64,000 nt of DNA from an uncultured Methanosarcinales archaeon (GCA_964645705.1 CAZYAB010000001.1:16749-80748), one strand, 5' to 3'; positions 19,662 through 64,000 are shown, numbered from the stretch's first letter. Notes: generated by a model not told the origin, from the letters alone. Program-made: numbers and translations.

Positions 19662-22613
19662 ATGCATATAAAGGTTGATAGATCTGAAAAAAAATCAATT
19701 TATGTTTCTCATGTTTCTATAATTTTATTTTTTACGTTCCTATTTATTGTTCTATTGTCATCAAATGTTTTATCAGTAGAGGATTTCACAGCTTACACAG
19801 CAAATCCAGATGATATTTCATTTGATCTTTGTCAATGTTCGCCAAGAATATTAGAATTTAAGATAAAAAACATAGGTTATTTAGATCATTCTTATAATAT
19901 TCATTTTGAAAACACAGCAAAGAACTTTGTCCAACCAAGCAAATCTTCAATATCAGTTGGATCTGGACAAGAAAAAGTATTTTATGCTTTAGTAGGTGCT
20001 CCTTGCAATGAAAAAGGAACATATGTCTTAGACACAATGATAATAGATGATCAGGGCCTTGCAAAAAAGATAACTCATACAATGAACATAAAAAGATGCA
20101 TTAATATTGATGTAGTACCTATTAATCAGAACCAAACAACTTCATCATGTAAAGCATTGGTTTATGAATATAAAATAAAAAATACAGGTGATTTTCAAGA
20201 AACATATGATATAAAAATTAAGCCAGAGTCAAGAAAAATCAAGAAATTTATATCAACTAACAAAAAATCTTTTGTATTAAAGCCAAAAACAGAAGAATCT
20301 TTACTTGTTTATTTTACTCCTGATTGTAATTATTTTGGTCATACTATGAATAAATTGATTATTTATACTGATAATACAGATCTAAAAGCTACTACTTATT
20401 TTGAGATCAATGTTTTGCCTAAATTCGACTTCTTAGCAAATATAGACGAAGAATTCAACCTTTGTGAACAAAAAGATTATATTAAAAACATTTACATAAA
20501 AAATCAAGAAGATAAAGCACAAAAATTTTTATTATCAATTCAGGAACCAAGCTTCGCAGATCTTTCAGCTAAATCAATTACATTAGGCCCTGATACAGAA
20601 TACGACTTGAATTTCACTTTATCTCCTGGAAAAGATTCTAAAGGAGACTATCCTTTATTATTAAAAATTAAGCTAGAAGATGGGCCAGCATTAAAAACAC
20701 TTAGTTCAAATATTACTGTAAATGAATGTTATGATTTTGATATAACTTTGCCTGATAGTCCTAAAGCATGCAATAAGGAACAGTCAAAAATACCAATTAC
20801 TATTATTAATAATGCCGAAACAGATGAAGAATTTGAATTAGAATTTGAATCAGATGATGAAAAGTACAATTCAACTAAATTTGAACAAGAAACAATAACA
20901 GTAACAAAAGATTCTGAAAACAACGCATTTTTATTGATAACTCCTGATGATGATATATTTGTAAGGGGAACTATCATTGCAAGACCAAAATCAAATCCTG
21001 ATTTAGAAATAGAAAAAACAATATTAATAAGAACTGTTTCAGAAGACAAATGTTATGAGATTATAACTTTAGAAGATGAGTTTGTTTTGCCAAAGAATGA
21101 TTCCAGGAAATCTATTGAATTAACATTAAAAAACACAGGCGTCTTAAAAACAGATTATGATCTTGCAATAGAGGACACAGAACAATTATTTTCATTAGAT
21201 ATAGATAAATTAACACTAGAACCAGGTGAAGAATCATCAATTAACTTAAATTATGATATTCCTGAAAATATAAGTAAAATTAGATTTGAAGCACTTTTAT
21301 TAGCTAGCGTCAGTACAGAAAATTACACCTATTCTTCAAAACTAATTCTAAGAAAACAAACCACATTCTCAGATTTATTTAAATATAATAACTTACGTAT
21401 TTTAGGTATATTAATAATATTTATACTTTTAGTTATTATTGCATTTATAATTTACATTCAGAAAACAGAAGGCGCATTTAAATCTAAGAAAAAGAAAGAT
21501 AAAAAAACAAAAGAAAAGGTTAAAAAGAAAGGAGTTAAACACAAAGCAGAGAAAAAAGTAAAAAAAAAGAAAAAGAAAAAGAAGAAAAAACCAAAGAAAT
21601 TCTTTGATGTTGATCTTAAGTTTTCAGATAAACATCTTGAAAAAGGCTATGTGTTTGATTTTGATAGAAAACCTAAAAAAACAACTTCGTTTTGGAAATA
21701 TTTCTGGATAATAATTTGCATTTTAGTGATTATTTTGTTAATAATAGGTGCTTATTATTATATGCCGACTATTAAAACAAAAGTCTCTACAAGTTTTAAT
21801 ATTACATTAGGCGATAAATTGAATAATAAGTTACTTAGTGCTTTTAATTTTTCGTCACTTATTCAGCCAATAGATATAATAACTGATCAACAAGAACCAG
21901 ACCAAACAGATACGCAGGATTTTGTAGAGGAAATAGATGAAGAAGAAAAAATAAAGGATGATGAAGTGGAAGAGGATAAAGATGATGAAGAAGAAATGGA
22001 TGAAGACGAAGAAGAGCCAGAAAAAGTAGAAGAAGAACACACAGATATTGGTAAAGAAATAATGCAAGAATTTGAAAGAAAAAGACAAGAATTAGATAAA
22101 CCAAATAAAACAATTGAACCTAAATTTGATCCGTTATTAATAAAGAGCACAATTCTAAGCTATGGTTCATCTTATTTATATTATTTTTACTATCTTATTT
22201 TTGCTATATTAATATTATTCATTTTAATATTAGTGATAAATCGTTTAAAAAAGGGGGGAGAGAACAAAAAGCCAGAAAAAAAAGCAAAAAAACACAAAGT
22301 AAAAGTAAAAACAAAAAAAGTAAAAGCATCCAAAACCATAAGAAAAGCAAAAAGCAAAAAAACAAGACCCAAATCTAAAAAAGATAAGAAAGTCTCACAA
22401 GAGAGCAAAACAAAGTTTTGGAAAATTCTTTTATGGATTTTATTGATTATGGTGATTGCTTTCCTAATAGTTTATTACATAAACATGATAAGAGAATATC
22501 TTTACTATGTTTTAATAGGAGTAATTATTTTGATAATATTGATAATAATTGATAAAAAAAGGCAAAAACAAGATAACAACACCAATAAAAAGAGTACTAA
22601 TAAAAAGAAATGA
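19662..22613 (+). CDS. large multi-pass membrane protein with alternating poly-Lys and poly-Asp/Glu linkers (hypothetical)
   Basis: N-terminal TM, a ~520-aa Cys-containing ectodomain, then 5 further TM helices. These are separated by K-rich (KKKKDKKTKEKVKKKG…) and D/E-rich (EEIDEEEKIKDDEVEEDKDDEEE…) segments. Confidence 0.5.
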   Translation: MHIKVDRSEKKSIYVSHVSIILFFTFLFIVLLSSNVLSVEDFTAYTANPDDISFDLCQCSPRILEFKIKNIGYLDHSYNIHFENTAKNFVQPSKSSISVGSGQEKVFYALVGAPCNEKGTYVLDTMIIDDQGLAKKITHTMNIKRCINIDVVPINQNQTTSSCKALVYEYKIKNTGDFQETYDIKIKPESRKIKKFISTNKKSFVLKPKTEESLLVYFTPDCNYFGHTMNKLIIYTDNTDLKATTYFEINVLPKFDFLANIDEEFNLCEQKDYIKNIYIKNQEDKAQKFLLSIQEPSFADLSAKSITLGPDTEYDLNFTLSPGKDSKGDYPLLLKIKLEDGPALKTLSSNITVNECYDFDITLPDSPKACNKEQSKIPITIINNAETDEEFELEFESDDEKYNSTKFEQETITVTKDSENNAFLLITPDDDIFVRGTIIARPKSNPDLEIEKTILIRTVSEDKCYEIITLEDEFVLPKNDSRKSIELTLKNTGVLKTDYDLAIEDTEQLFSLDIDKLTLEPGEESSINLNYDIPENISKIRFEALLLASVSTENYTYSSKLILRKQTTFSDLFKYNNLRILGILIIFILLVIIAFIIYIQKTEGAFKSKKKKDKKTKEKVKKKGVKHKAEKKVKKKKKKKKKKPKKFFDVDLKFSDKHLEKGYVFDFDRKPKKTTSFWKYFWIIICILVIILLIIGAYYYMPTIKTKVSTSFNITLGDKLNNKLLSAFNFSSLIQPIDIITDQQEPDQTDTQDFVEEIDEEEKIKDDEVEEDKDDEEEMDEDEEEPEKVEEEHTDIGKEIMQEFERKRQELDKPNKTIEPKFDPLLIKSTILSYGSSYLYYFYYLIFAILILFILILVINRLKKGGENKKPEKKAKKHKVKVKTKKVKASKTIRKAKSKKTRPKSKKDKKVSQESKTKFWKILLWILLIMVIAFLIVYYINMIREYLYYVLIGVIILIILIIIDKKRQKQDNNTNKKSTNKKK

Positions 22614-22642
22614 TTATATACTTTTTCTTTATCCCTTATATT

Positions 22643-23809
22643 ATGCATAAAAATAAAACCAAAAACAAGAAAAACAAGAACATTGCAATAATCGGAGCAG
22701 GACCTGCGGGTTTGTATTCTGCGTACTTATTAGCAAAAAATGATAATAATCTTAACATCATAGTTTTTGAAGAGCATAATAAAATAGGAATTCCTGTAAA
22801 ATGTACTGGCTTAGTGACGAATTCTATCCAAAAAATAATGAAAATTCCAAAAAACATAATTAAAAATAAGATTGAATTTGCAAACATAATTTCACCAAAC
22901 AACCAAACCATTACAATTAAATTAAAAGATCCGAATTTGGTGCTAGATCGTGCTAAATTTGATCAATTCTTAGAGAGAAAAGCCAAAGATTCTGGTGTAA
23001 AAATACAAACAAATCACATATTTTACCGTCTTAAAAATAACAATTCTAATACAATCATTCTAAAGAATAAAAACAAAAATATAGAATATAGAACCCACTT
23101 TCTTATTGGTGCTGATGGACCACAAAGTATGGTCAATAAGTTGATCAATCCAAATACGAGGAATAAATTCTTAGTAGGAATACAAACACGCATTAAAGTA
23201 AAAATAAAGAACAAAAATATATTAGAGTTCTATCCAGTAAAACAAGGTTTTTGCTGGTTTGTTCCTGAATCAGACACAATTGCAAGAATAGGAATAGCTT
23301 GTTACAAAGATCAAAAAAAAACATTCAATGATTTCATAAAAAGAATTGAATCCGCACACAAGATTAAAGTAAGTAAAAAAAACAAGATAGATTATCAAGC
23401 AGGCCTTATTCCAATATATAATTCTAAGATAAAGACATATAAGAAAATCAATAATTTGCCGATTTATATAGTCGGTGATGCAGCAACGCAAGTCAAAGCA
23501 ACAACTGCAGGCGGAATAATACAATCATTATTAGCAGCACAGGCATTATACAGATCAATCAAATATAATGAAAATTATAAAAAACACTTAAGACAAATAT
23601 TAAATAAAGATCTTTTTATTCATTTTCTGATAAGAAAAATACTTGATAATTTTACAAATAAAGATCATGATTACTTATTTAAACTAACAAATCAGAAGAA
23701 AATTAAGAAATTTTTATCAAAAATAGACAGAGACAACATATTGAGATTATCATTTAAAATGCTACTAAATGAGCCAAGATATTTATATTTCATTAAAAGA
23801 ATACTCTAA
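22643..23809 (+). CDS. FAD-dependent geranylgeranyl reductase family oxidoreductase
   Basis: IAIIGAGPAGLYSAYLLA (dinucleotide-binding GxGxxG) and GADGPQSMV. Size ~390 aa. Start taken at MHKNK, inside the longer ORF-track call. Confidence 0.65.
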   Translation: MHKNKTKNKKNKNIAIIGAGPAGLYSAYLLAKNDNNLNIIVFEEHNKIGIPVKCTGLVTNSIQKIMKIPKNIIKNKIEFANIISPNNQTITIKLKDPNLVLDRAKFDQFLERKAKDSGVKIQTNHIFYRLKNNNSNTIILKNKNKNIEYRTHFLIGADGPQSMVNKLINPNTRNKFLVGIQTRIKVKIKNKNILEFYPVKQGFCWFVPESDTIARIGIACYKDQKKTFNDFIKRIESAHKIKVSKKNKIDYQAGLIPIYNSKIKTYKKINNLPIYIVGDAATQVKATTAGGIIQSLLAAQALYRSIKYNENYKKHLRQILNKDLFIHFLIRKILDNFTNKDHDYLFKLTNQKKIKKFLSKIDRDNILRLSFKMLLNEPRYLYFIKRIL

Positions 23810-23866: not shown

Positions 23867-24436
23867 TTGGGAAAAAAAAGATTGATTTTAAGAAAAGAAA
23901 ATGTTGCATTATTTATTCTAATTATAATGGTGTTTAGTGTATTTGGTATGTGGAAAGCTTCTCAAGCAAATACAGTTGAATACAATGGTTTCGAGTTTAT
24001 TTTGACACAAAATGGGTGGCTTACTACAATAAACGATAAACAATATTTTTTCAATTTTCTTCCTAATGAACTTGAACAAATTAATTCAACACCAATTGAT
24101 TTGAATGGACCCAAAGTATACATTGCTTATGATTCTAAGGATAAGGGACTAGAAAAAACAAATACAATTAATTATTTGGGTTCTATTATATTTCAAAAAG
24201 GAATAAGGGTTGTTTTATCTTGTACAGATGAGGAAAATTGTCCTGATGATGAATGGCCCATTGTTAAATGCGATGACGCTTCTGCTGATGTAATTCTACT
24301 TAAAGCTAATCACGAAGATAATGAATCAAAGATATTTAAACAAGATAAATGTTATGTAATTCAAGCAGGCAATAATTTCGATCTTAGTTTATTAAGAGAG
24401 AAATTTGCTTATAGTCTTTTAAAAATAATAGAATAA
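23867..24436 (+). CDS. hypothetical membrane-anchored protein
   Basis: Single N-terminal TM (VALFILIIMVFSVFGMW), then ~160 aa with several Cys. No domain recognised. Confidence 0.4.
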   Translation: MGKKRLILRKENVALFILIIMVFSVFGMWKASQANTVEYNGFEFILTQNGWLTTINDKQYFFNFLPNELEQINSTPIDLNGPKVYIAYDSKDKGLEKTNTINYLGSIIFQKGIRVVLSCTDEENCPDDEWPIVKCDDASADVILLKANHEDNESKIFKQDKCYVIQAGNNFDLSLLREKFAYSLLKIIE

Positions 24437-24501: not shown

Positions 24502-27500
24502 ATGCAAGAACAATCAAATTCAAATGAAAAGATTCAAACGAATCAAATTAAAACAGAACAGACAAAACAGACAGAACAGGTAATACAGCAAACTAATAAA
24601 GAGATTAATAAAGAAACTGATGAACAAAAAATAGATAAGAAAAGAAAAAAAATAATTGAAACATTGAAGAACTTCTTTACACAAGAAGTAGAAGAGGAAA
24701 AACAGAAAACAGAAGATAAAACAAAAACAAGTAAGAAAATAGAAGAGAATAAAATAATAGGCGAAAAAAAAGAAGAGCAGAAAGAAAAATCAGAAGAACA
24801 AATCGAAATAGATATGCAAAGAAAAAGACAAGAATTTATTAATTTTATTAAAAAAAAACCAATTAATTTGCTTTACATTTTATTCATCTTATTAATACCT
24901 ATAGGTTATCTTATGTATAAATCAGGAACAAGCAGTTTCTTTCTTTTAGACATTTTTATACCATTCCCAATTAATAAATATGGGTTTGTTTCATTTTTTT
25001 TAATACTGCCCATAGTTTCATGCACATTATTATATTATAAAAAACAAGCATATATTGCTCTATTGTATATTATTAATTCAGGTTTTGCAATTAGACTACA
25101 AAATTTACCATTATTAAAAGATATTACAACTGGAAAATATGTGCCTCTTGCCTTAGACCCGCATGTTTTTTTAAGATATGCGAAGTATCTTTTAGAGCAT
25201 GGAAAATTTTATGCCATAGATTCTTTGAGGTATCAACCATTTGGAGCTAATATGGAGGGTTATAATTCAACAACGTTTTTGTCAAGATTTATTGTTTTCT
25301 TGCACAAAATATTTAGAATTTTCAACTCAAATCAAACTATTGAATTTACAGATGTAATCTATCCTCCTGTTTGTTTTGCTATTAGTCTAATATTTTTCTT
25401 TTTAATTGTTAAAAATTTATTTAATAAAAAAATAGCAATCATTTCAACTTTTATCCTATGTGTTGTTCCTACTTATTTATATAGAACAATGGCTGGTTTT
25501 TCAGATAAAGAATCATTAGGTCTTATGTTCATGTTTATTACTTTTTATTTTTTTATTTTGAGTTGGAAATCAGAAAAGATTAGAGAGGTAATTTTATTTG
25601 GGTTAATCTCAGGAATAGCGACAGGTTTAATGGGTTTAACTTGGGGTGGTGTAACTTTTGTTTTATTAATATTTGGAATTTTTACATTTACTGAAATACT
25701 TTTAAAGAAATTCAGAAAAACAGACTATTTTTTCTACATTTCTTGGATTATGCCAATGACTTATATTATGGCTTTCACTACAAACCAATTTGGCGGAATA
25801 ATTCCTTTATTAAAATCATTTACCTCTGGGATAGCTTATCTTGCTTTTTTAGTTGCTACGTTTGATTTTTTATTTTTTAAATTAAAGATTTTTAAGTTTA
25901 GGGACAATCTTAGTAAAAAATTACCATTAGGAATTACTAGTACTCTTCTCTCATTATTTTTTGCTTTTATTGGTATATCAATATTCTTTGGTCCATCTTT
26001 TATTCTTAAAAAGATCTCTAGTGTTTTTTCAGATATGATAAATCCTTTTGGAAAAACAAGATGGGCATTAACAGTGGCAGAATCTCACCAACCTTATTTT
26101 ACTAATTGGATTAGTGATTTTCAATGGTCATTTATTATTTTCTTTTTTATAGGTTCAATAATTTTATTTTATTATGCATTAAGGCCTTTATCCAAGAAAG
26201 AGTCATTTTCAACTAATTTAGGAATTTATTCTGCAATTTTTGCATTATTTTTAATATTTTTTTCAATGAGTAGATACAGCAGAGGTAATGCTGTTTGGAA
26301 TGGAGAGACAATCTTATCAAAAACAATTTATATTGGATCTTTTATTTTTTTCCTTTTGGTAATGTTTTTATCATACTTATATCTATTTTATTTTGATAAA
26401 AATACTTTTAGAAAAATTGAATCAATAGAAAAAAAATATATTTTTATCTTGATTTGGTTTATTATTATGCTTGTTGCAGCAAGAAGTGCTTTAAGATTGA
26501 TTTTAATGCTTGCACCAATAACAAGTATACTTACAAGTTATTTTATTGTTTTTTCAATCAAAAAGACACAGAAATTTAGTTTAGTAATGAAAGATAAAGT
26601 ATATAAATATTCTTTGATAGTTTTGATGGTTTTTATCTTAATCATCGCATTCTGGCCTTTTGCATCATTAGTTAATGCAACTCCTTTAATAAATAAAGTA
26701 CCTTTTATTAATAGAAATGGTTTTATCATTAACTATGCTGCTTTAAGTATGAGCCAAGCAAAATATACTGGACCTAGTTATGATCAACAATGGCAATTAG
26801 CAGGTAAATGGATTCGTGAAAATACTTCAGAAGATGCTGTATTTGGTCATTGGTGGGATTATGGTTATTGGGTTCAAACAGGTGGTGAAAGAGCAACAGT
26901 TGGTGATGGTGGTAATTGGATAGGTTATTGGAATCATTTAATGGGCAGACATGCTTTGATGGGTGAAAATCAAACAGAAGCTTTAGAATTTTTAAATATG
27001 CATAATGTAACTCATTTTCTAATTATTGCAGATGAGATTGGAAAAATAGGTGCTTATTCTTCTATTGGTTCTGATGAGAATTATGATAGATATACTTTTA
27101 TTCCAACATTTTCATTAAACAATCAATTAACAAAAGAAACAAGAGAAGGCATGATCCTTATTTATGAAGGCGTAACCCCTGTTGATGAGGATTTTGAATT
27201 TAATGGTGTTAAATATTATGCAAGACAAGCAGCTGTTAAAGATGTTTATATTCCAATTAAGAAAATAACAATAAATATAGGAGAAAATAAAACAAGACAA
27301 GACATGCAAATCATGCAACCATATACTTTGCTTTTCCAACAAAATCAACAACCACTTGAAGTTCCTCTTAAATGTTTATATTACCAAGATCAATTCATTG
27401 AATTTGATAAACCGGGGTTAAACAATTGTTTTATGGTTATTCCAACCATAAATAATCAAGGCTTTGATCCTAACGGAGCAGGTTTATATCTTGGTAATGA

Positions 27501-27834: not shown

Positions 27835-28782
27835 ATGCCACATATATCAATTGTAATTCCAGTATATGATGAAGAAAAGAATATATCTCTTTTGTATTCT
27901 TCATTAAAAGACATACTTAAAAAGATAAAAAGGACACATGAAATAATCTTTGTAGATGATGGAAGTAGAGATCAAACATTAGGGAATTTGATAGAAATTA
28001 AAAAAAAAGATAAAAATGTTAAAATTATTAAATTTAGAAGAAACTTTGGTCAATCAGCTGCAATGGATGCTGGATTTAAGCTTGCAAGAGGAAGTATAAT
28101 AATCGCAATGGACGCAGATTTACAGAATGATCCTAATGATATCCCAAGACTAATTACAAAAATAGATCAAGGTTATGATGTTGTGAGTGGTTGGAGATAT
28201 AATAGAAAGGATTCTTTTTCAAAAAGAATGTTTTCAAAATTTGCTAACAAATTATATCGAAAATTGACAGGAATAAGAATACATGATAGTGGTTGTTCAT
28301 TAAAAGCATATAAAAAACAGGCAATAGGAACAATCAATTTGTATGGTGAAATGCACAGACATATTCCTGCATTATTATGTGCACAAGGTTTTAAGATTGG
28401 AGAAATAAAAGTAAAACATAAAAAAAGAAAATTTGGAAAAACAAAATATGGTTATTCGAGATTGTTGAAAGGATTTCTTGATTTACTTTATGTATATTTC
28501 TGGATTAGATATTCGCATAAACCATTGCATTTTTTTGGAAAATGGGGCATTGTACAAATAATCATGGGTGGAGTTATTGGGATATTTAAAGCAATTAATC
28601 TATTTATTAAAATACTTATACAAGATCAGGTTGTATTTGTTGGCCCTCTTTTATTACTTGCTGTATTATTAATAATAAGTGGGACATTATTTATTTTATT
28701 TGGTTTTCTTGCCGAAATGAAAATAAGATTATTTTTCACACAATCAAAAAAAACTTATTATAATATTGAAAAAATAATCTAA
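27835..28782 (+). CDS. dolichyl-phosphate sugar synthase-like GT2 (DPM1/AglD/AglJ-like) with C-terminal TM helices
   Basis: ISIVIPVYDEEKNI, FVDDGSRDQT, AMDADLQNDP, then two C-terminal TM helices. Confidence 0.75.
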   Translation: MPHISIVIPVYDEEKNISLLYSSLKDILKKIKRTHEIIFVDDGSRDQTLGNLIEIKKKDKNVKIIKFRRNFGQSAAMDAGFKLARGSIIIAMDADLQNDPNDIPRLITKIDQGYDVVSGWRYNRKDSFSKRMFSKFANKLYRKLTGIRIHDSGCSLKAYKKQAIGTINLYGEMHRHIPALLCAQGFKIGEIKVKHKKRKFGKTKYGYSRLLKGFLDLLYVYFWIRYSHKPLHFFGKWGIVQIIMGGVIGIFKAINLFIKILIQDQVVFVGPLLLLAVLLIISGTLFILFGFLAEMKIRLFFTQSKKTYYNIEKII

Positions 28783-55170: not shown

Positions 55171-56673
55171 ATTTTTTGATCCTTTTTAAAGATTGTGAAG
55201 TTAATAATAATAATCTAGTTGTTAGTTTGTTATCAAAGGTTGTTAGAAACAAATCACAACTTAAAATTTTAAATATAATTAAAACAATTTGTTTTGGTAA
55301 TTTTTTATTTAAATTATAAATAAAATATAAAAGGAATGTTGCATAATTATTTTCAACCCATCTATTACTTGACCAGGTTTTCAAATAAACATCTTTGATA
55401 TCATTTCTTATTAAACCATTGTTTTTTCCACGTTCATATAATTTTGTTCCTGGATATAATACTAGAGGGAAATAAATTATTTGAAAAGGTTTTGGCAATT
55501 TAAGTATGAGGTCTATTGTTTCAATAATATTTTTATTTTTTTCAAAGGGATTATTAACAATAATATGATATATTGGAGGTATTTGAAGATATTTTGTGAA
55601 TGAATTAATAATCTCGGCTGCTTCTAATATTTTTTTATTACTTGTGTATCTTTCATAAATTTTAAAATTAGTAGATTCACTTCCACTTTGAATTCCCATA
55701 CTTACTTCAATAAGACCCGTTTCTATTAATATTTTGAGCTTTTCTTTGTTTATAATTAGAGGACTTATAGATGCTTTGAATGGCAATCCTATTTTCTTTT
55801 TATATTCACTGCTAAATTTCTTAAGATCGTCTATACTACGTATTAAGAATTCCTCATCAGTAAAACGTATTAATCTTATAAAATCATATTGTTTAGTAAT
55901 GTTAACTAATTCATCAATAATGTGCTTTATACTTCTTTTTCTTATATATGTCCCCTTGTTTTTGTATAATTGTCTTAGTTTAAAATTACAACAAAAAGTG
56001 CATTTATAAGGACAACCTCTTGTTGTATGGATGTAATATTCGTATATTCTTTTTCCATTAGAATCAACTCTATAGGGCATTATCTTTTTTAATATTTTGG
56101 GAGTTACTTTTACTATTCTTCCTTCATCAATAACATAATGTGTTTTTATATCATAATCTTGCGTCGGATACTTATCAAGATTACTTGTTAAGTTTTTTAT
56201 AGGGTTTATGATAATTTTGTTATTTTTCTTAAAACCTAAATTATTAATTTTATGTAACCTTTCCTTTTTTTCTAATTTATTTATAAAATCAAGAAGAGAC
56301 TCCTCACATTCACCGATCATAATATAATCAGCATATTTTAAACACTCTTCTGGCCTCATTGTCGGATGACTCCCCCCCACATGATTGGGATCTTTAAATG
56401 ATGTTTTAAATACTGGGTGATCTGTACACTCTTCATGAAATAGTTAGTCATAAGAGAAATACCAATTAATTTTGAATCTTTACATATTTGCATTAGATCT
56501 TTAAGAATATTTTTATTATATTTTTCATCATAGTTTTGTTTATATGTACCAGGAGACAAAAATACTAAGTTAACTTTGTGCCCTTTTGATTTTAAATAAG
56601 AAGATAATTTTCTTAATCCATATGCTACGTTTAAATCATATGGAGATATTAGAGTTATTTTTATTTTAAACAC
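55163..56673 (-). pseudogene. B12-binding radical SAM gene split by a frameshift in a C7/G7 homopolymer (56372-56378)
   Basis: Upstream ORF (56356..56673) encodes the B12-binding N-domain ending …IPIMWGGVIRQ*. Downstream ORF (55163..56380) starts (GTG)GGSHPTM… and contains CPYKCTFC (CxxxCxxC). One extra G would give a continuous …IMWGGGSHPTMRPEE with the GGxHxT box. Confidence 0.65.
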
Positions 56674-56814: not shown

Positions 56815-57771
56815 ATGGCTAAAAATAGAGTTAAGGAAAAACAAAATAAAAGTGAGAAAAAAAAGAATAAAAGTAGATCATTTATAGTAAAGTTTATTAT
56901 AACAATTCTTATCTTCACATTTATCTTTATGAAGATAGATTTTCACAAAATTTTAAGTATTATAAAAAATATAAATTTGTTTATTTTATTTCTCTCTGCG
57001 CCATTTTTATTTCTTTTTTATGGAATTAAAACCACAAAATGGAATTTATTACTTAGAGCATTAGATGAGAAAACAGATTTTATTAAAAATTATGTAATTA
57101 TAATAATTTCAACTTTTTATTGTTTAGTAACTCCTGGTAAAGCTGGTGAATTAACAAGAGCTTTGTACTTGAAAGCAGATAAAGCAAAGATTGTTTCAAC
57201 TGTTATTTGGGATAAAATAATTGATGTATTTGTATTAATTGTACTATCAGATATATTGGTTTTTACACTTTTTAGAAATATAATCTTACAATTCTTAATG
57301 CTTATAATTTCTTTTGGATTTATTGTATTTGTTTTTATACTGTTTAATGAAAAAATAACACATTTTGTATTAAAATTAATAAAAATAAAAGAGGATACAA
57401 TATCTAATTATATCATTAATTTGAACAAAATTAAAAAAAATAAGAAAATTGTTATTAAGAATACAATTTATACTTTTCTCTTCTACACTGTTGGGTTTAT
57501 TATCACCTATTTTGTGTTAATTTCATTGCAAAAAAACGCAAGTTATATTTTCTCTTTAAGTTATCCATTATTTGCACTCTTAGGGAACATTCCTATAACT
57601 TTGTCAGGGTTAGGAACAAGGGAATATGTAAACATGGTTTGTTTTGAAACATTGGGATCTAGTCCAGATTTAGGTTTCACAGTTTCATTTGTCTTTTTTA
57701 TAATATCTGTATTAATTCCAGGAATTTTGGGAGGGATTTTAAGTCTTAAGGCTAAAATAAGAATAAAATAA
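56815..57771 (+). CDS. polytopic membrane protein, UPF0104/LPG-synthase-TM-like (putative flippase partner of GT2)
   Basis: About 8 TM helices, a K-rich N-terminus, and a GKAGELTRAL loop. Immediately upstream of a DPM-like GT2. Confidence 0.4.
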   Translation: MAKNRVKEKQNKSEKKKNKSRSFIVKFIITILIFTFIFMKIDFHKILSIIKNINLFILFLSAPFLFLFYGIKTTKWNLLLRALDEKTDFIKNYVIIIISTFYCLVTPGKAGELTRALYLKADKAKIVSTVIWDKIIDVFVLIVLSDILVFTLFRNIILQFLMLIISFGFIVFVFILFNEKITHFVLKLIKIKEDTISNYIINLNKIKKNKKIVIKNTIYTFLFYTVGFIITYFVLISLQKNASYIFSLSYPLFALLGNIPITLSGLGTREYVNMVCFETLGSSPDLGFTVSFVFFIISVLIPGILGGILSLKAKIRIK

Positions 57772-57778
57772 AAATAAA

Positions 57779-58639
57779 ATGAATAAAGTATCAGTATTAA
57801 TACCAGCATATAATGAAGAAAAATCAATAGTAGATACTATTAAAAGGATAAAAAAAGTATTTCTTGAAATTAAAGAAAGTTATGAAATCATTGTAATAAA
57901 TGATGGAAGCAAAGACAATACTAATTATTTATTGAGTAAGATTAAAGGAATCAAAGTAATAAATAATCCTTATAATTTAGGATATGGAGCTTCATTAAAA
58001 AGAGGTTTAATTGAATCAAATGGGGAATTTATATTAATTACTGATGCAGATGGGACTTATCCTATAGATGATATACCAAGATTATTGAAACACATAAATA
58101 ATTATGATATGGTTATTGGTGCAAGAATAGGGAAAAATACATATATTCCTTTATTAAGAAGACCTGCGAAGAAAATATTAGGTATTTTTGCAAACCTTTT
58201 GACTAAGAGAAAAATTTATGATTTAAATTCAGGGTTAAGAGTCTTTAGAAAAGATATGGCGATGAAATTCTATAGACTATATCCTTCTGGGTTTTCTTTT
58301 ACAACAACAATTACTTTAGCAGCATTAACTAATGATTATACTGTTAAGCATATTTCCATTAATTATTTTAAAAGAAAAGGTAAATCAACTATTCACCCTA
58401 TAAAGGATTTTATTGGATTCAATGCATTAATACTCAGGATTGTTTTATATTTTAAACCACTTAAATTTTTTTTAACACCAGGGATAATCTTAATCTTATC
58501 TGGTTTTATTTTCGGTTTGTATCAGATTATGTCAACTGGGATGGGTTTAGGTCAACTTCCAATAATATTAATTTTAGGAGGAATTCAAATTTGTTTTATT
58601 GGTTTATTAGCTGAAGTTATTATACATAAGGATAAATAA
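57779..58639 (+). CDS. dolichyl-phosphate sugar synthase-like GT2 with C-terminal TM helices
   Basis: VSVLIPAYNEEKSI, VINDGSKDNT, ITDADGTY, plus two C-terminal TM helices. Confidence 0.75.
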   Translation: MNKVSVLIPAYNEEKSIVDTIKRIKKVFLEIKESYEIIVINDGSKDNTNYLLSKIKGIKVINNPYNLGYGASLKRGLIESNGEFILITDADGTYPIDDIPRLLKHINNYDMVIGARIGKNTYIPLLRRPAKKILGIFANLLTKRKIYDLNSGLRVFRKDMAMKFYRLYPSGFSFTTTITLAALTNDYTVKHISINYFKRKGKSTIHPIKDFIGFNALILRIVLYFKPLKFFLTPGIILILSGFIFGLYQIMSTGMGLGQLPIILILGGIQICFIGLLAEVIIHKDK

Positions 58640-58697
58640 AAAAACAAGTAAATAAAAAATAAAAAGTAAAAAATAAAAAATTTATATAAATAAAAAT

Positions 58698-59342
58698 ATG
58701 GATTTAGATAAAGCTATAAAAGGAAGAAGAAGTATAAGAAAATTTTCTGATAAAAAAGTAGATGAAAAAACAATAAAATTGATTATTGAAGCAGGAATTT
58801 GGGCACCAAGCGCATGTAATTTTCAGGATTGGAAATTTATTGTGTTGGACAATAAAAAGTTAATTAACAAAATTATAGATTTAGGAGGATCAGTTGTGAT
58901 TGGTAATGCTCCTGTAGGAATCTTGGTTCTTTACAATAACCAAACTGATAATTTAGAGTATTTAGACTATATACAGAGTGCTTCTGCATGTATCCAAAAT
59001 ATGTTACTTAAAATTTATTCATTAAGATTAGGTGGTTGTTGGTTGTGTCATTTACCTGATAAAAAAGATCTTAGGAAATTATTAAAAATTCCTAATCATT
59101 ATGATCCTATTGCTTATATCGCTTTAGGTTATCCTCTGGTCCAACCTAAACCAAATAAAAGAAAGGCCCCTTTACAGGAATTAATCTTTTATAATAGGTT
59201 TAATTTTATAACAAAAAAAAAGGATAATTTAAGATTAATATTTAGAAGAATGTTGCGCAGATTATATTTCAAAATACCTTTATCAATAAAAAAAATTTTA
59301 AGATCATATATTGAGAAAAAACATGTAAAAAAATTTAATTAA
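58698..59342 (+). CDS. nitroreductase family protein
   Basis: RRSIRKFSDKKVDEKTIKLIIEAGIWAPSACNFQDWKFIV is the canonical nitroreductase N-terminal signature. Confidence 0.75.
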   Translation: MDLDKAIKGRRSIRKFSDKKVDEKTIKLIIEAGIWAPSACNFQDWKFIVLDNKKLINKIIDLGGSVVIGNAPVGILVLYNNQTDNLEYLDYIQSASACIQNMLLKIYSLRLGGCWLCHLPDKKDLRKLLKIPNHYDPIAYIALGYPLVQPKPNKRKAPLQELIFYNRFNFITKKKDNLRLIFRRMLRRLYFKIPLSIKKILRSYIEKKHVKKFN

Positions 59343-59344
59343 AA

Positions 59345-60136
59345 ATGTCGGCAACTTTATTTAGAAAATTTAAAAAGGAAATTAATTATGTAACTAGAAA
59401 GGATTGGAATTTTGAAGATGTGGGGAAATTTTGGAATACTGTTAAAGATTATGATGAGATAGATGATGAAACATATGCATACAAAAGGAGATTTTATGAT
59501 AGTATGAGGATGTTTGATAGTATAAGAATGTCAAATCTTCCTAAAAAAGGTAGGTGTTTAGATATAGATTGTAGAACTGGAAATGGGACTGTTTTTTATA
59601 GTAAAAACAAAAAAATAAACAAAGCAGTTTGTATTACTCCTTCTTCAGATTTTCTTAATGTTTGCAAAAAGAGATTAAAGAAATATAATATTAAAGCAAA
59701 AGTAATGCTTTTAAGAGAACTTCCTTTAAAATTAAAATCAAATTATTTTGATCTTATACTTTGTTTAGAAACAATTGAACACATTTCACCTAAAAGGCGT
59801 TTAGATTTTTTAAAAGAATTAAATAGATTAATAAAAGATAGAGGAAAAATGGTTCTAAGTATGCCTAATATTTTATGGGAACCAGTTCATTGGGGTGTTG
59901 CAATTTTTGGAATCCACCATAGCGAGGGACCACATAAGTTTTTATCAAGAAGAGAGATAAAAAGATTATTTGAACAATCAAATTTCAAGATAATCAAACA
60001 GGAAACAACAGTTTTAATTCCTGTTGGATCTAAATGGTTAACATCGTTTGGTGAAATTCTAGAAAAGTCTTTTAAAAACACATTGATGCCTTTGATTGGA
60101 TTAAGAAGGATATATATTTGTGAAAAAATTAAGTAA
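59345..60136 (+). CDS. putative SAM-dependent methyltransferase
   Basis: GRCLDIDCRTGNG is a degenerate motif I. DLILCLETIEHI and MVLSMPN motifs follow. Confidence 0.5.
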   Translation: MSATLFRKFKKEINYVTRKDWNFEDVGKFWNTVKDYDEIDDETYAYKRRFYDSMRMFDSIRMSNLPKKGRCLDIDCRTGNGTVFYSKNKKINKAVCITPSSDFLNVCKKRLKKYNIKAKVMLLRELPLKLKSNYFDLILCLETIEHISPKRRLDFLKELNRLIKDRGKMVLSMPNILWEPVHWGVAIFGIHHSEGPHKFLSRREIKRLFEQSNFKIIKQETTVLIPVGSKWLTSFGEILEKSFKNTLMPLIGLRRIYICEKIK

Positions 60137-60195
60137 GTTCATTTTCTTTTTTAGTTAAGACACTTATTATTGATTCTTATTTTAATTAACAATTT

Positions 60196-61677
60196 TTATT
60201 CTAATTTATATATCCTTAGGAGATAAGGTTCATTTGCTTCGTATAATATAGAATGTTTATATTTATTTAGTATTTTATTTTCAAATTCAGAAAAATCTTT
60301 ACTAACATATGAATCATCTGGTTTGTGATTAGCAAATAGTCCATAGTCTGGTTTTCCTGCTAATTCAAGATAATCAATCCATGTAGGCTCATTATAATTA
60401 ATAAATTTTTTATTCCCTAAGTATTCATTAAAATAAATAAGATTAAAACCATCACCTATAACTATGGTATCTTCTTCTATTCTTTTGTGTATATTGCTTG
60501 CAACTCCATATAAATTATTAGTATAATCATTTTGGATTTTTGATAAACAAATAGTAGAAAAACAGAGAATTATTATTATAATCAACATTAGTACCTTATA
60601 ATTTAATTTGAATCTTTTTATTATTTTTTCAATCAACGAGGAATAAGGAATTATTAAAAATGGAACTAAGGGAAACAAATATCTTGCTCCTATTAATAAA
60701 TTTCTTATAAAATCATAATGGAATATTTTTGGGTTAAGATAACTAAAAGCAGGAAACAAAAGAGCTACCAATATTATTATTTCTAATTTTAATTTCTTTT
60801 TATATGTTATTGGGGAAATTAGCAATCCAGGATAGACAATAAGAAATATTATTATGTAATAAATAAATGTTTTACTAATTTGAACAATTCCTCTATTTAA
60901 ATTAATCATATTTCCATAACCAGTACTAAATAAATTACCATATATGAAAAAATTAAGTAGAAAGATGATTATTGCTATAGGAACAAAACCTAATATTAAA
61001 TTATAAAATCTTTTTCTATTTTTAAAAAGAGAAACAATTAAAAAGGGGCCAAAAAATAAAACATTTGTATATCTTATCATGCAAGAAATACTAAAAAAAA
61101 TCCCAGAATAAATACTATTCTTTTCTATTCCAATAATATTCTTTTTTTCATATCCTTGTTTATTTTTGTTCTCATTTGCTAAAATATAGTAATATAATCC
61201 TAATAAAATAAAAGTAATTGATGATACTTCAGTCATTATAGTCCTACTGTAAAATACTAATCCAGGATAAAATAAGTAAAGTATTGAATAGATGGGTTTA
61301 ATTTTTAGTTTAACCAATACTTTTGCAATTACTAGAACATTAATTAAGTGGAAAACTAAACCAAATAAAAAAATAGATTTCAAACCTAAAAAAATAAATG
61401 GGAATAATAAAAGATTTTGTCCAATTGGATAATATGGTGCAAAATTTTCATCTATTTTAACATATTTATAAGACATCAATGGATCATCTATAAATAATTT
61501 ACCTTTAGATAAAAGATAGGTAGTTCTAAAATATTCATTTTCATCAGAATATGTGAAATATTTTGGATAAAAAATTAAATAAAGTATTATAAAGAATATA
61601 ACACTAATTAATATTATATTTATATTGAATTTCGCAATATTCTTCTTAATTTTTCTACTTTTGATATTGTTTTTCAT
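60196..61677 (-). CDS. polytopic membrane protein, probable GT-C glycosyltransferase
   Basis: More than 11 TM helices. First loop has YSDENEY and YYPIGQ (DE and PPL-like). Confidence 0.45.
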   Translation of the reverse strand: MKNNIKSRKIKKNIAKFNINIILISVIFFIILYLIFYPKYFTYSDENEYFRTTYLLSKGKLFIDDPLMSYKYVKIDENFAPYYPIGQNLLLFPFIFLGLKSIFLFGLVFHLINVLVIAKVLVKLKIKPIYSILYLFYPGLVFYSRTIMTEVSSITFILLGLYYYILANENKNKQGYEKKNIIGIEKNSIYSGIFFSISCMIRYTNVLFFGPFLIVSLFKNRKRFYNLILGFVPIAIIIFLLNFFIYGNLFSTGYGNMINLNRGIVQISKTFIYYIIIFLIVYPGLLISPITYKKKLKLEIIILVALLFPAFSYLNPKIFHYDFIRNLLIGARYLFPLVPFLIIPYSSLIEKIIKRFKLNYKVLMLIIIIILCFSTICLSKIQNDYTNNLYGVASNIHKRIEEDTIVIGDGFNLIYFNEYLGNKKFINYNEPTWIDYLELAGKPDYGLFANHKPDDSYVSKDFSEFENKILNKYKHSILYEANEPYLLRIYKLE

Positions 61678-61822
61678 ATTAACTTCTTAATTATGTAGTT
61701 TACATAATATAATTTGAATAATATATTTTATATAAAGGGTCTCTAAATATTTTAACTCAAATTAATATTTTTTTACTGGTTAAACAGTTAACTATTTAAA
61801 TTATTTGTATTTTTACATTTAA

Positions 61823-63541
61823 ATGAAATTTATTAATAAGAAAAAAGATTTAATAGTATTGTTTTTATTCTTATTTGTAATTGTAACTAGATTTATTCCA
61901 ATAAATAATCTATATAGTGAGGATGAAATGAACATACCATTGATTCTTGAAAGTAATCCTGATTATTTTGTAAATACTAAGTTACACGCACATCCACCGT
62001 TAGGAGAAATAATCTTTTATTTTCATTCATACATCTTTGGTACATCTTTGGTGTTTATAAGACTTTTACCAATTTTATTTTCTATTTTTAATATATTTTT
62101 TCTATATTACATAACGAAGAAGTTTTATGGTGAAAAAGTTGCATTCTTTTCATTATTATTGTCCTCAATTTCATTTCATTGGTTAGTTACATCTGCCATA
62201 GTTTCTATAGATCAATTCGCAGTAACAATTTTCTTACTTTTTTTATATCTAATATTAAATAAAGAAAACATAAAAGAGAGATTTTCTATTTATATGGGAA
62301 TATTGTTGGGTATATCTATTTTATTAAAATACCAGTTTATTATTTTATACTTGATCTTATTCATATATTTGTTAATAACTTCATATAGATTAAAATATAC
62401 ACTTATTTCCTTTTTTAAATCTTGTATTGTTTCTTTAATACTTTTTTCTTTTTATCCTGTTTTTTCATATTTCACTGATTTTAATTTATTTTTAGATACA
62501 TTAAGATTCATAATGGATTATGCAAGCACTGTTAATGGTGTTAATTTGCCATTCGGGACAATATTTACCATCTTAGCATTGTATAGTACACCATTACTGA
62601 TAGGATTAGCTTTTTTAAGATTAATAAGTTTTATGAAACTAAAAAAACAAAAACAGAATTTTAGACAAAAAGAGGTTGTAGGACAAGATATTATTCACAT
62701 TATAATTATAATAATAAATCTCTTATTTTTCTTATTTGTAGTAAAACGTGGGGACTATAGCAGGTATTTAATGATAATATTGCCTTCTTTAACTATTCTT
62801 TCATCTCAATATCTTTCTAAAATAAAATTTAATAAAGCTTTATTATTTTTAACTTCTTTCTTTGCTCTCATTGTCTTTTCATTTAGTCATGTTTTTTCTT
62901 ATATTAAACTCTCCGAGGATATTTTTGTTTTACAAAATGTTAATTTTTATATGCAATCTATAAAAAATCTAAATTTCAATTTCTTTTTTCCATTTCATAT
63001 AGATCATGGCCACTGGGTTGGAGCTAATTTTCTATTAATCTTTTTAATTTATTTGTTTTCTTTGGTAATCTTCATTTCTTTATTTTTAATTAAAAATAAA
63101 AAATTACAATTGTTAGTTATTGTTTTATTTATTGGTTTTGGTTTTGGTTATAATTCTTATCTTAGTTCAGAGCATTTGTTTCATCTATCTCAACCTGACC
63201 CAAACCCTGTTATAAATGAAATGATTGATTTTTTTAATGATAATAATTTGGATAGGCCTATTTATGTAACAGACAAGGCTTTCTTATATAAACTGAATAC
63301 TTTTGATATTCCTCATGGGAAAAATGAGAAATTAATTATAAGGGATGAGTCATTTAGAATAGATGATATTGATTTTCTTAAAAAAAAGATTTCTCAAAAT
63401 GGTGGCACAATAATTTTCTTAAACTTTGGACCACACGTTGAAAAGGATAAAATAATTAGCCTGGAAAATTGTAATTTGATCAAACGTTTCAGTTCAAAAG
63501 AGATAGAAATGGGCTATATTTTAACTTGTGAATCAGATTAA
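61823..63541 (+). CDS. GT-C glycosyltransferase (PMT/ArnT-like, GT39/GT83-type)
   Basis: First loop has YSEDEMN and HAHPPLGE (DE and HPPL boxes). About 12 TM helices, then a ~150-aa C-terminal soluble domain. Confidence 0.55.
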   Translation: MKFINKKKDLIVLFLFLFVIVTRFIPINNLYSEDEMNIPLILESNPDYFVNTKLHAHPPLGEIIFYFHSYIFGTSLVFIRLLPILFSIFNIFFLYYITKKFYGEKVAFFSLLLSSISFHWLVTSAIVSIDQFAVTIFLLFLYLILNKENIKERFSIYMGILLGISILLKYQFIILYLILFIYLLITSYRLKYTLISFFKSCIVSLILFSFYPVFSYFTDFNLFLDTLRFIMDYASTVNGVNLPFGTIFTILALYSTPLLIGLAFLRLISFMKLKKQKQNFRQKEVVGQDIIHIIIIIINLLFFLFVVKRGDYSRYLMIILPSLTILSSQYLSKIKFNKALLFLTSFFALIVFSFSHVFSYIKLSEDIFVLQNVNFYMQSIKNLNFNFFFPFHIDHGHWVGANFLLIFLIYLFSLVIFISLFLIKNKKLQLLVIVLFIGFGFGYNSYLSSEHLFHLSQPDPNPVINEMIDFFNDNNLDRPIYVTDKAFLYKLNTFDIPHGKNEKLIIRDESFRIDDIDFLKKKISQNGGTIIFLNFGPHVEKDKIISLENCNLIKRFSSKEIEMGYILTCESD

Positions 63542-63579: not shown

Positions 63580-63984
63580 TCAATCCACTATTCTATACTC
63601 ATTGAATTTATTCTTTACTTTCTTCCATTCATTCATAGAGCCTTTATTTAAGAAGTGTTTTGCAAATAATTTCCCCATATCCATACAATGATCTATATTA
63701 TTGTAATTGAATAATCCAAACCGCCCTAAGGTTATAATTCCTTTATTTTCTATAAAGTTGATAATTTGATTTAAATTTGCTTTATAATCTAGATCATATA
63801 TTGGGTAAATTCCTTTTAATTTAATAAAATGCTTTTTTATGATTAAATTTGCATCAGTTTTAGAGATTATTTTTGCTTTAATAAGATCTTTTATTGCGAT
63901 TTCGATTATATCATGTTCATTTAATCCATTAATTTTAGGATTAGTTATTTCAAGACAAAGTACTGTTTTATTTTTAGGGATCAT
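63580..63984 (-). CDS. short ORF resembling the C-terminal region of UGM-like FAD oxidoreductases (possible gene remnant)
   Basis: GRFGLFNYNNIDHCMDMG matches the GRxGxYxYxNMD box. Only 134 aa, with in-frame stops (TAA, TAG) immediately upstream of the ATG. The full-length paralog is at 28815..30140. Confidence 0.4.
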   Translation of the reverse strand: MIPKNKTVLCLEITNPKINGLNEHDIIEIAIKDLIKAKIISKTDANLIIKKHFIKLKGIYPIYDLDYKANLNQIINFIENKGIITLGRFGLFNYNNIDHCMDMGKLFAKHFLNKGSMNEWKKVKNKFNEYRIVD

Positions 63985-64000
63985 ATATTTACTAAAACCT

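Follow-up and report, generated by a model that had tools for sequence, protein, structure and literature searches.

We analyzed a 64,000-nt stretch of DNA (GCA_964645705.1, CAZYAB010000001.1:16749-80748; hereafter the window, with coordinates counted from its first letter), in which positions 22610-64000, the island under study, hold ~35 densely packed open reading frames (ORFs), nearly all with a glycosylation-related family assignment. The island encodes the oligosaccharyltransferase AglB and five further membrane proteins of the GT-C class of glycosyltransferases (GTs), one of which is fused to a cyclophilin. It is quite probably the main cell-surface glycosylation locus of a DPANN archaeon, in which N-glycosylation by AglB stands beside several three-component routes using dolichol-linked sugars on the outer face of the membrane. 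Taken as a whole, the island is an agl-type locus with three-component GT-C modules, a kind already known, in an under-studied lineage. The GT-C-cyclophilin fusion is its new element, and the rest of the island resembles known agl-type loci. AglB and the five other GT-C proteins had been named in an original prediction made from the sequence, and all named genes were recovered where it had placed them. The genes that carry this reading are the following.

22610-23809, + strand: geranylgeranyl-reductase-family flavin adenine dinucleotide (FAD) enzyme (NCBIfam TIGR02032, E = 9e-44, 150.3 bits against a cut-off of 158.8)
23867-24436, + strand: orf189, 189 aa, one N-terminal transmembrane (TM) helix and a Cys-containing soluble domain, no family match
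24502-27783, + strand: AglB oligosaccharyltransferase (GT-C, STT3 family, GT66), 1093 aa (Pfam STT3, PF02516)
27835-28782, + strand: GtrB/ArnC-type polyprenyl-phosphate glycosyltransferase, GT2 domain and two C-terminal TM helices (PDB matches)
28815-30140, + strand: FAD amine-oxidase/phytoene-desaturase-like oxidoreductase, PRK07233 family (Pfam Amino_oxidase, 5e-20; NCBIfam NF005560, 413 bits against 252)
30172-32484, + strand: YfhO-family GT-C, 770 aa (homologues with PF09586)
32453-34237, + strand: PMT_2-type GT-C, 594 aa, weakly like Agl23 (Pfam PMT_2)
38631-40163, + strand: Wzx/Polysacc_synt-type flippase, predicted for lipid-linked oligosaccharide (Polysacc_synt, 1.4e-32; MatE, 2e-20)
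51859-54252, + strand: GT-C-cyclophilin fusion, 797 aa (Pfam PMT_2, 32.1 bits; cyclophilin, PF00160)
56815-57771, + strand: MprF-type flippase-like membrane protein (PF03706 and TIGR00374)
57779-58639, + strand: GtrB/ArnC-type GT2 with two C-terminal TM helices, 8 nt after the flippase-like gene
60196-61677, - strand: probable GT-C, 493 aa, distantly like the LA_3751/LA_3752 putative glycosyltransferase family (profile comparison)
61823-63541, + strand: PMT_2-type GT-C, 572 aa, EDE box after TM1 and HPPLGE motif (PMT_2, 4.6e-16, 59.9 bits)

AglB was recognized by Pfam (PF02516, E = 1.7e-18, 67.8 bits against 24.5) and by the archaeo_STT3 model (TIGR04154, 2.6e-30, under the subfamily cut-off), and the predicted catalytic motif WWDYGYW was present at residues 784-790, starting at nt 26851. 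About 60 aa downstream of WWDYG lies ADEIGKIGAYSSIG, which reads DEIGK in relatives and whose spacing appears to differ from the DxxK of the DK/MI motif. The protein is 1093 aa long, compared with typically 850-905 aa in relatives. Both AglB (24502-24860, ~120 aa) and the fusion (51859-52080, ~75 aa) carry K/E-rich, low-complexity N-terminal cytoplasmic extensions that are absent from most homologues. The best genomic relatives of AglB were all metagenome-assembled genomes of Woesearchaeota, Nanoarchaeota, or Pacearchaeota (closest 62% identity, others 34-45%), and a NAC gene upstream confirmed an archaeon. Judged from these sequences, the host is an uncultured DPANN (Woesearchaeota-type) archaeon, neither a methanogen nor a haloarchaeon; the earlier choice of Haloferax and Methanococcus as comparators, which assumed a euryarchaeon, therefore did not fit. 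The same sequence was present in three metagenome assemblies and in one 275-kb NCBI contig.

The membership of all five extra polytopic proteins in the GT-C superfamily was supported by sequence searches. A local iterative search seeded with the GT-C part of the fusion retrieved all six GT-Cs of the window and none of the Wzx flippase, the flippase-like protein, the CDP-alcohol transferase, or the Ig-like proteins. When the six were compared with one another by blastp, no pair gave an E value below 1e-4, indicating distinct enzymes of separate families rather than recent duplicates. Pfam scans were read to E ≤ 0.01 and NCBIfam scans to 0.1, and the Pfam gathering score of PMT_2 (PF13231) is 26.1 bits. 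Three proteins had been described as ArnT/PMT-like: those at 32453 (PMT_2 2.5e-7, 31.5 bits; Pfam PMT 5.4e-6, also above cut-off) and 61823 passed the PMT_2 cut-off, whereas 60196 was placed by profile comparison only, its small family aligning with the PMT_2-like family of the fusion at an hhalign probability of 98.5% (E = 2.9e-15, 285 columns, RYxxP motif aligned). The YfhO-like assignment of 30172 was borne out by 481 homologues, the closest at E = 3e-182; the top ones ranged from there to 1e-38 with 88-98% coverage, and among the best 120, almost every one bears PF09586 or the name "YfhO family protein." All six residues invariant in a 41-member family alignment (D53, P174, R266, G401, R560, and W686) are retained in 30172, and its YfhO family profile matched the PMT_2-like family of the fusion at an hhalign probability of 95.6%.

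The DE and (H/K)PPL boxes predicted for the ArnT/PMT-like proteins were found in part. An acidic box follows TM1 in 60196 (D45-E46) and 61823 (E32-D33-E34), and also in 30172 (D44-E45) and 51859 (D102-E103), but the first loop of 32453 has only E35/D37 (EGD), with HKPL, and HPPL occurs in 61823 only. No MIR domain was matched in any Pfam scan of the window at E ≤ 0.01, so none of these proteins is a true GT39 protein O-mannosyltransferase, and the O-mannosyl-type glycosylation once suggested for the island found no backing in any candidate. The proteins are like the GT39 enzymes (PMT/POMT and actinobacterial Pmt) in their GT-C fold, PMT/PMT_2 signatures, first-loop DE box, the HPPL motif of 61823, and the 11-TM N-in/C-out arrangement of the fusion; besides the MIR domains, they differ in marginal Pfam PMT scores (25-27 bits) and in that the fusion matches the folds of Pmt1/2/4 only partially (214-260 columns, E = 3e-3 to 2e-2) and less strongly than those of ArnT and AglB. 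For most of the extra GT-Cs, an AglS-like role, in which a sugar is added to an N-glycan already attached, is at least as likely as O-mannosylation.

Donor synthases and flippases accompany these transferases. Of three predicted DPM1-like synthases of dolichol phosphate (Dol-P) sugars, two combine a full GT2 domain with two TM helices. The protein at 27835 (helices 233-257 and 272-290) gave full-length PDB matches to ArnC (9.3e-49, residues 3-314), GtrB (4.5e-36), and the Pyrococcus Dol-P-Man synthase PfDPMS (1.1e-19), and that at 57779 (helices 221-248 and 260-278) matched ArnC (1.6e-17, residues 2-251) and PfDPMS (3.5e-15). The third, at 34830, agreed with the prediction in part: it is a catalytic domain only, has no TM helices, and found PfDPMS as its sole PDB match (8.8e-10). 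The flippase-like protein at 56815 scored well above both of its cut-offs (PF03706, 5.7e-33, 115 bits against 33.4; TIGR00374, 94.3 bits against 43.2), and the Wzx flippase, like the predicted GT4, GT2, and nucleotide-sugar enzymes, was confirmed by Pfam or NCBIfam; a 44%-identical Wzx homologue adjoins AglB in the closest relative (L004). The genes lie in same-strand runs (geranylgeranyl reductase-orf189-AglB-GT2-FAD enzyme-YfhO-PMT_2 and flippase-GT2) with overlaps or gaps of <70 nt. Among the 80 homologous loci of relatives used for comparison of AglB neighborhoods, a GtrB-type GT2 homologue was found near AglB in 41-43 and a homologue of the flippase-like protein in 11. The joint presence of three synthases of polyprenyl-phosphate sugars, flippases of two kinds, and six divergent GT-Cs does imply several lipid-linked routes, as originally proposed.

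Two kinds of route can be envisaged. In the first, cytoplasmic enzymes would make activated sugars (CDP-glucose converted to CDP-6-deoxyhexose, with short-chain dehydrogenase/reductase [SDR] epimerases and an AsnB-type amidotransferase), and soluble GT4 and GT2 enzymes would assemble an oligosaccharide on Dol-P. The glycan would be tailored by methyltransferases, a deacetylase, B12-dependent radical S-adenosylmethionine (SAM) enzymes, and a CDP-alcohol phosphotransferase, after which Wzx would flip it outward and AglB would transfer it to Asn of secreted proteins. In the second, the GT2s at 27835, 57779, and perhaps 34830 would load single sugars on Dol-P, a flippase (the MprF-type 56815 or Wzx) would move them out, and the five mutually unrelated GT-Cs would each transfer a sugar to a different acceptor outside the cell. 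By analogy with known systems, most of these acceptors are probably glycans already on surface proteins or other envelope glycoconjugates; the GT-Cs other than the fusion may serve in N-glycan finishing, Ser/Thr glycosylation, or lipid or polymer decoration. The fusion would most likely act directly on polypeptides emerging from the membrane, and its external, tethered prolyl isomerase could hold or isomerize proline-containing segments during glycosylation. We infer the donors, the acceptors, the pairing of GT2s with GT-Cs, the isomerase-transferase coupling, and the other functional steps beyond family membership from sequence.

These routes have experimental precedents. In Haloferax, AglD makes Dol-P-mannose, AglR helps to flip it, and AglS adds the sugar to the protein-bound N-glycan (PMC3871713). 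The island resembles the Haloferax volcanii agl locus in that AglB lies among genes for GTs, a Wzx-type flippase, sugar-nucleotide enzymes, and methyltransferases, and in that the glycan-specific part varies between close relatives, as between the window and L004; the predicted sequence of a GT2-made Dol-P-sugar that is flipped and added outside by a multispanning transferase would correspond to AglD/AglR/AglS. It differs in its DPANN host, in having five extra GT-Cs of five families rather than one, in its three candidate Dol-P-sugar synthases, and in an MprF-type flippase-like gene that is separate and not fused to AglD. An archaeal neighborhood of arCOG00899 (MprF-like flippase), arCOG00563 (PMT/STT3-like), and arCOG00897 (AglD-like GT2) was described as a predicted glycosylation module by Makarova, Galperin, and Koonin in 2015 (PMC5898192). 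By composition, positions 56815-63541, with the flippase-like gene, the adjacent GT2, and PMT_2-like GT-Cs, are similar, but here genes for a nitroreductase and a methyltransferase intervene between the flippase-GT2 pair and the GT-Cs, one of which lies on the opposite strand. In Bacillus and Listeria, CsbB/GtcA/YfhO form a three-component route for lipoteichoic acid (PMC5836110, PMC8035078). Like this system, GtrA/GtrB/GtrC, and ArnC/ArnEF/ArnT, the island combines a GtrB/ArnC-type GT2 bearing two C-terminal TM helices with a flippase and a GT-C, and it includes a true YfhO-family member (30172) and an ArnT-like fold (the fusion). Unlike in these systems, the carrier is presumably Dol-P and not undecaprenyl phosphate, the flippase is MprF- or Wzx-type and not GtrA/GtcA, and the archaeal acceptors cannot be lipoteichoic acid, O-antigen, or lipid A.

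The fusion at 51859 was confirmed in both parts. It consists, in order, of an N-terminal cytoplasmic tail, an 11-TM GT-C core (approximately nt 52078-53130), an extracytoplasmic middle domain, a K/E-rich linker, and a peptidyl-prolyl isomerase (PPIase) domain (nt 53806-54237). The cyclophilin spans residues 650-793 (E = 3.4e-54), with PPIL1/CYP71 as its best PDB relatives at ~1e-46. In an alignment of the fusion, a second such protein (P0001), and human CypA, ten of the ten canonical active-site residues were kept (CypA R55, F60, M61, Q63, A101, N102, F113, W121, L122, and H126). The TM core of the AlphaFold (AF2) model reached a predicted local distance difference test (pLDDT) score of 80-95. 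The possibility that the GT-C candidates are transporters was checked on this model with Foldseek: the best 29 matches in the PDB were all GT-C enzymes (ArnT, AglB, STT3, PglB, ALG9/12, and Pmt1/2/4; E = 9e-7 to 2e-2, probability 1.00), and transporter matches were nonsignificant (E > 0.07, probability ~0.1). The only invariant residues across 41 homologues are R371 and, in the first outer loop, D102; W100, D199, K239, Y372, and P375 come close to invariance, a pattern that would be expected of a GT-C active site and a lipid-phosphate binding site. The gene identities, the superfamily membership, the fold, the intact PPIase site, and the topology signal described next are shown by these analyses.

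The positive-inside count for the single sequence was indecisive between an 11-TM and a 12-TM model (14 vs 8 for one, 13 vs 9 for the other), and the family-wide count decided. Among 66 family members, the density of K and R ranged from 0.23 to 0.31 in all loops predicted to lie inside and from 0.06 to 0.16 in all those predicted to lie outside; this alternation leads to an 11-TM, N-in/C-out topology with the middle domain and the cyclophilin extracytoplasmic. Where GT-C enzymes of solved structure end in a soluble domain (ArnT, AglB, PglB, and STT3), that domain is extracytoplasmic. The charge pattern thus makes an extracytoplasmic position most likely for both domains of the fusion, as for the C-terminal domains of ArnT, AglB, and PglB.

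The architecture is rare. A word search of 5.8 billion proteins found one other fusion (P0001, 838 aa, 54% identical), the other matches being GT-Cs of ~500 aa. With the GT-C part as query, HMMER yielded 413 matches among 1.84 billion representatives, the best 150 of which are all ≤661 aa and leave no room for a cyclophilin, and a scan of metagenome contigs for further copies returned no relatives. No account of a GT-C-cyclophilin fusion turned up in the literature searched, a weak negative given incomplete literature coverage.

A cyclophilin is a peptide-directed domain, and its presence therefore argues for, and points to, a polypeptide acceptor of the fusion. A more specific proposal, which we regard as speculative and rather unlikely to hold in full, is that the fusion, as an archaeal protein O- (or C-) glycosyltransferase equipped with its own extracellular foldase, would catch proline-containing segments of surface proteins emerging from the membrane and glycosylate them with a Dol-P-sugar as donor. 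To our knowledge, the enzymes of archaeal O-glycosylation are unknown. The pathway is still described as elusive (PMC8241124). If the proposal were true, the fusion would offer the first enzyme-level handle on archaeal O-glycosylation and a covalent prokaryotic counterpart of the folding factors that accompany the eukaryotic oligosaccharyltransferase (OST) and PMT enzymes. In either case, the attachment of a peptide-directed domain to a GT-C provides evidence, at the level of domains, for a protein acceptor and makes the fusion a concrete candidate for archaeal O-glycosylation. The OST folding factors (the Ost3/Ost6-Tusc3 oxidoreductases and FKBP11 beside OST-A; PDB 9n9j) likewise place a folding domain beside a GT-C where unfolded secreted proteins emerge; unlike the fusion, they are separate subunits of other families (thioredoxin-like and FKBP), so that the likeness is one of analogy. 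FKBP11 has been argued not to act as an isomerase at OST-A (PMC12804085).

Stand-alone cyclophilin-like genes (151-175 aa, no signal peptide, degenerate active site) head a cyclophilin-(GT2)-Wzx-AglB operon in two related Woesearchaeota genomes (L060 7947-8474 and L021 239-694). As support for a link between cyclophilins and AglB they were set aside: two of 80 loci is near chance, and both probably belong to one lineage.

Several findings weigh against the reading of the island as a set of protein-directed glycosylation routes, and they bear on three alternatives. The first concerns the acceptors, for which the surface-protein genes just upstream of the island are relevant as candidate glycosylation substrates.

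13900-17727, + strand: PKD-repeat protein, 1275 aa, signal peptide (Pfam PKD)
18051-19553, + strand: Ig-like protein, 500 aa, signal peptide and C-terminal anchor (Pfam Ig-like)
19662-22613, + strand: Ig-like multi-TM protein, 983 aa (Pfam Ig-like)

The PKD protein has no N-X-S/T sequon (7.6 ± 2.7 expected by composition), the 500-aa Ig-like protein likewise has none, and the 983-aa Ig-like protein has 11 (6.9 expected). By the standard rule, the PKD protein is therefore not an AglB substrate. The homologues of the three proteins in L004 (1312-7957) showed the same pattern (0, 0, and 12), which suggests that the sequon content of the genes beside AglB is under selection. In addition, the window Pfam scans gave no match to an initiating phosphoglycosyltransferase (PF00953, PF02397), so that initiation would fall to a DPM1-like GT2 (as AglJ) or be encoded elsewhere.

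It is conceivable, though we think it unlikely, that the extra GT-Cs act on a non-protein envelope polymer or glycolipid (a lipoglycan, a capsule-like polysaccharide, or a membrane lipid) and that AglB is merely co-located. The closest characterized family members (YfhO, ArnT, ArnC, and GtrB) work on lipids or polymers, ArnT on lipid A and YfhO on lipoteichoic acid; the CDP-alcohol phosphotransferase with its nucleotidyltransferase, the deacetylase, and the exopolysaccharide (EPS)-type AsnB are typical of polymer loci; and the lack of sequons in the big neighboring PKD protein fits as well. However, the lack of an initiating phosphoglycosyltransferase counts against this alternative too, and no Wzy polymerase or chain-length regulator was found in the window Pfam scans; the sole PF04932 match, within the Ig-like protein at 19662-22613, is faint (E = 0.0026, 18 bits against 31.7). 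AglB shares a tight operon with two GT-Cs, the archaeal precedent AglS acts on protein-bound glycans, and the cyclophilin, which acts on polypeptides, speaks for a protein acceptor of at least the fusion.

The second alternative, which we consider doubtful, is that the fusion involves no functional coupling: the cyclophilin would be cytoplasmic (with an even number of TM helices) or the result of a recent accidental merger confined to a single narrow lineage, and the GT-C part would be an ordinary ArnT/AglS-like enzyme. Only two sequences, the one in the window and P0001, have the architecture, and the best relatives of the GT-C part are too short for it. The C-terminal soluble half of the model has a pLDDT of 25-60, and a cyclophilin on the outside therefore rests on the positive-inside signal and the fold analogy; the single-sequence charge count barely separates the 11-TM and 12-TM models. 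Moreover, in one relative (L030) a GT4-B12-radical-SAM-GT2 cassette is contiguous without a GT-C between, so the fusion gene looks like a lineage-specific insertion into a conserved cassette, and its neighbors thus say little about its function. Against this alternative, the fusion has been kept with both parts intact over 46% sequence divergence, the catalytic residues of both domains are all conserved, the loop charges across the family alternate in perfect agreement with the C-out model, and the C-terminal soluble domains of the best fold matches are established to be extracytoplasmic. That one or more of 30172, 60196, and 32453 are not glycosyltransferases but flippase helpers (Agl23-like), polymerase- or ligase-like proteins, or transporters is improbable: 30172 itself gave no Pfam, NCBIfam, or PDB sequence match (E ≤ 0.01/0.1), 60196 had only subthreshold direct matches (NF047440, LA_3751/LA_3752, 9.4e-15 near full length; GT22, 1.3e-3), nothing meaningful in a PDB sequence search with either protein, and a structure model from a four-sequence alignment (pLDDT 43.7) too poor for the fold search made with the fusion (no Foldseek match below E = 0.99), and 32453 matched Agl23 (TIGR03663) at 4.8e-7, below cut-off, under an NCBIfam label ("flippase activity-associated") that does not denote a proven transferase, but 30172 is strongly homologous to hundreds of YfhO-family proteins, the hhalign matches of 60196 and 30172 to the PMT_2-like family extend over ~290 columns including RYxxP, both carry the DE box after TM1, and 32453 exceeds the PMT_2 and PMT cut-offs.

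The density of GT-C genes was then compared among the 80 related loci, with GT-Cs counted within ±10 kb of AglB. At least one GT-C besides AglB was present in 32 of the 80 and at least two in nine; by locus, 48 had none, 23-25 had one, 6-8 had two, and one had three. The window has two extra GT-Cs within ±10 kb and five over 41 kb. This density, which the original prediction had called unusual, lies at the upper end of a lineage-wide tendency and is neither unique nor a new kind of outlier; it is high, but extra GT-Cs are common in related loci and such a neighborhood has already been described (PMC5898192). In the closest relative, L004, the left flank is kept (PKD protein, two Ig-like membrane proteins, reductase, orf189, and AglB), but the genes downstream of AglB differ and comprise a methyltransferase, Wzx, a radical-SAM/SPASM protein, a different PMT_2, a UDP-GlcNAc 2-epimerase, a GT2, an oxidoreductase, and an acetyltransferase. 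Such a pairing of a constant AglB anchor with a glycan-specific region that varies is a familiar pattern (PMC11407970). Surface glycans are probably a variable investment for this organism, as L004 keeps AglB and the surface-protein genes and swaps the glycan genes.

The genomes of DPANN archaea are very small, and these archaea are believed to spend their lives attached to other cells, which makes the surface central to their lifestyle. More than 41 kb of a 275-kb contig devoted to six lipid-linked membrane transferases and their supply lines is thus a major investment in surface glycans, and the locus offers a compact natural set of five uncharacterized archaeal GT-C families with candidate donor synthases and flippases nearby.

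Further genes of the AglB operon may concern the lipid carrier and the oligosaccharyltransferase itself. From their family assignments, the two FAD enzymes (22610 and 28815) may be candidates for saturating the polyprenol carrier to dolichol, which would be of note in a lineage commonly regarded as host-dependent for its lipids; the geranylgeranyl-reductase-family gene is kept upstream of AglB in three relatives (L004, L005, and L051). The orf189 protein had no Pfam or NCBIfam match, its homologue lies directly upstream of AglB in 11 of the 80 relatives, and it may be an accessory subunit of the oligosaccharyltransferase.

The remaining genes of the island form a minus-strand block at 34260-38381, a second at 40227-44407, a mixed-strand block at 44506-50432, and a right-hand part.

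34260-34811, - strand: SAM methyltransferase (Pfam)
34830-35486, - strand: DPM1-like GT2 (Pfam)
35528-36472, - strand: SDR epimerase/reductase (Pfam)
36498-37577, - strand: CDP-glucose 4,6-dehydratase (TIGR02622, 470 bits against a cut-off of 278)
37602-38381, - strand: glucose-1-phosphate cytidylyltransferase (TIGR02623, 329 bits against a cut-off of 300)
40227-41039, - strand: CDP-alcohol phosphotransferase (Pfam)
41042-41875, - strand: sugar/alcohol-phosphate nucleotidyltransferase (Pfam; for this pair, weak IPCT/DIPPS-like matches)
41896-43767, - strand: AsnB-type glutamine amidotransferase (NCBIfam asn_synth_AEB, 517 bits against 267)
43793-44407, - strand: polysaccharide deacetylase (Pfam)
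44506-45177, + strand: methyltransferase (Pfam)
45178-46059, - strand: weak GT-B-like ORF (Pfam)
46252-47388, + strand: GT4 with a G7 tract at 46348 (Pfam)
47420-48457, - strand: SDR epimerase (Pfam)
48631-49800, + strand: GT4 (Pfam)
49797-50432, + strand: methyltransferase (Pfam)
50448-51857, + strand: B12-binding radical-SAM enzyme, class B, probably a methyltransferase (B12-binding, 2e-23; Radical_SAM, 3e-25)
54265-55170, + strand: GT2 (Glyco_tranf_2_3/GT21-like) without TM helices (Pfam; weak PgaC-like match)
55163-56673, - strand: B12-binding radical-SAM gene, frameshift-split at a G7 tract (C7 on the + strand) at 56372 (Pfam on both halves)
58698-59342, + strand: nitroreductase-family protein (Pfam)
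59345-60136, + strand: SAM methyltransferase (Pfam)
63580-64000, - strand: 3' part of a 473-aa NAD_binding_8/amine-oxidase-like gene that runs off the window (gene call on ENA scaffold L084)

In total, the island holds five SAM methyltransferases, two B12-radical-SAM genes, two GT4s, and GT2s. The cytidylyltransferase and the dehydratase are equivalog-level NCBIfam matches and, with the adjoining SDR, indicate a CDP-6-deoxyhexose pathway. Homologues of the GT2 at 54265 with 47-55% identity lie near AglB in three relatives (L030, L021, and L053). The last gene runs off the window, and the island therefore goes on past the right edge. Two extra GT2 genes, one with four TM helices (Glyco_tranf_2_3, synthase-like), were seen at 1245-3341, ~20 kb upstream, and glycosylation capacity thus reaches beyond the island coordinates. 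A mobile or horizontally acquired origin was rejected because the G+C content is uniform (~27% across the window, local range 0.22-0.30) and no tRNA or other Rfam match was found in the window.

Homologues of the B12-radical-SAM enzyme at 50448, with up to 59% identity, occur within 10 kb of AglB in 31 of the 80 relatives, a recurrent association that suggests that the glycan or the lipid carrier is methylated, or otherwise modified, by radical chemistry. The second such gene is split into ORFs of 105 and 405 aa (frames ...IMWGG and SHPTMRPEE), compared with a single ORF in L062 and L048. The window contains only two 7-nt G/C homopolymers (46348 and 56372), where ~0.1 would be expected at 27% G+C, and both lie inside island genes, the one at 46348 in frame near the start of the GT4 gene. 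These tracts could reflect a pseudogene or slipped-strand phase variation affecting glycan genes; L084, the only further assembly available, has tracts of identical length, and no variation was seen.

Assemblies of the same population showed breaks in two island genes. A 23-bp deletion at window positions 28473-28495 (L001 and L002) breaks the ORF of the GtrB-type GT2 at 27835, L001 also has an N run, and in L084 an N run lies inside the PMT_2 gene at 61823. Strain variation as the cause of the split genes was rejected, the differences being N runs and the one deletion, with the rest 99.8-100% identical. The breaks are most likely assembly or scaffolding artifacts, and the 23-bp deletion could be a real variant.

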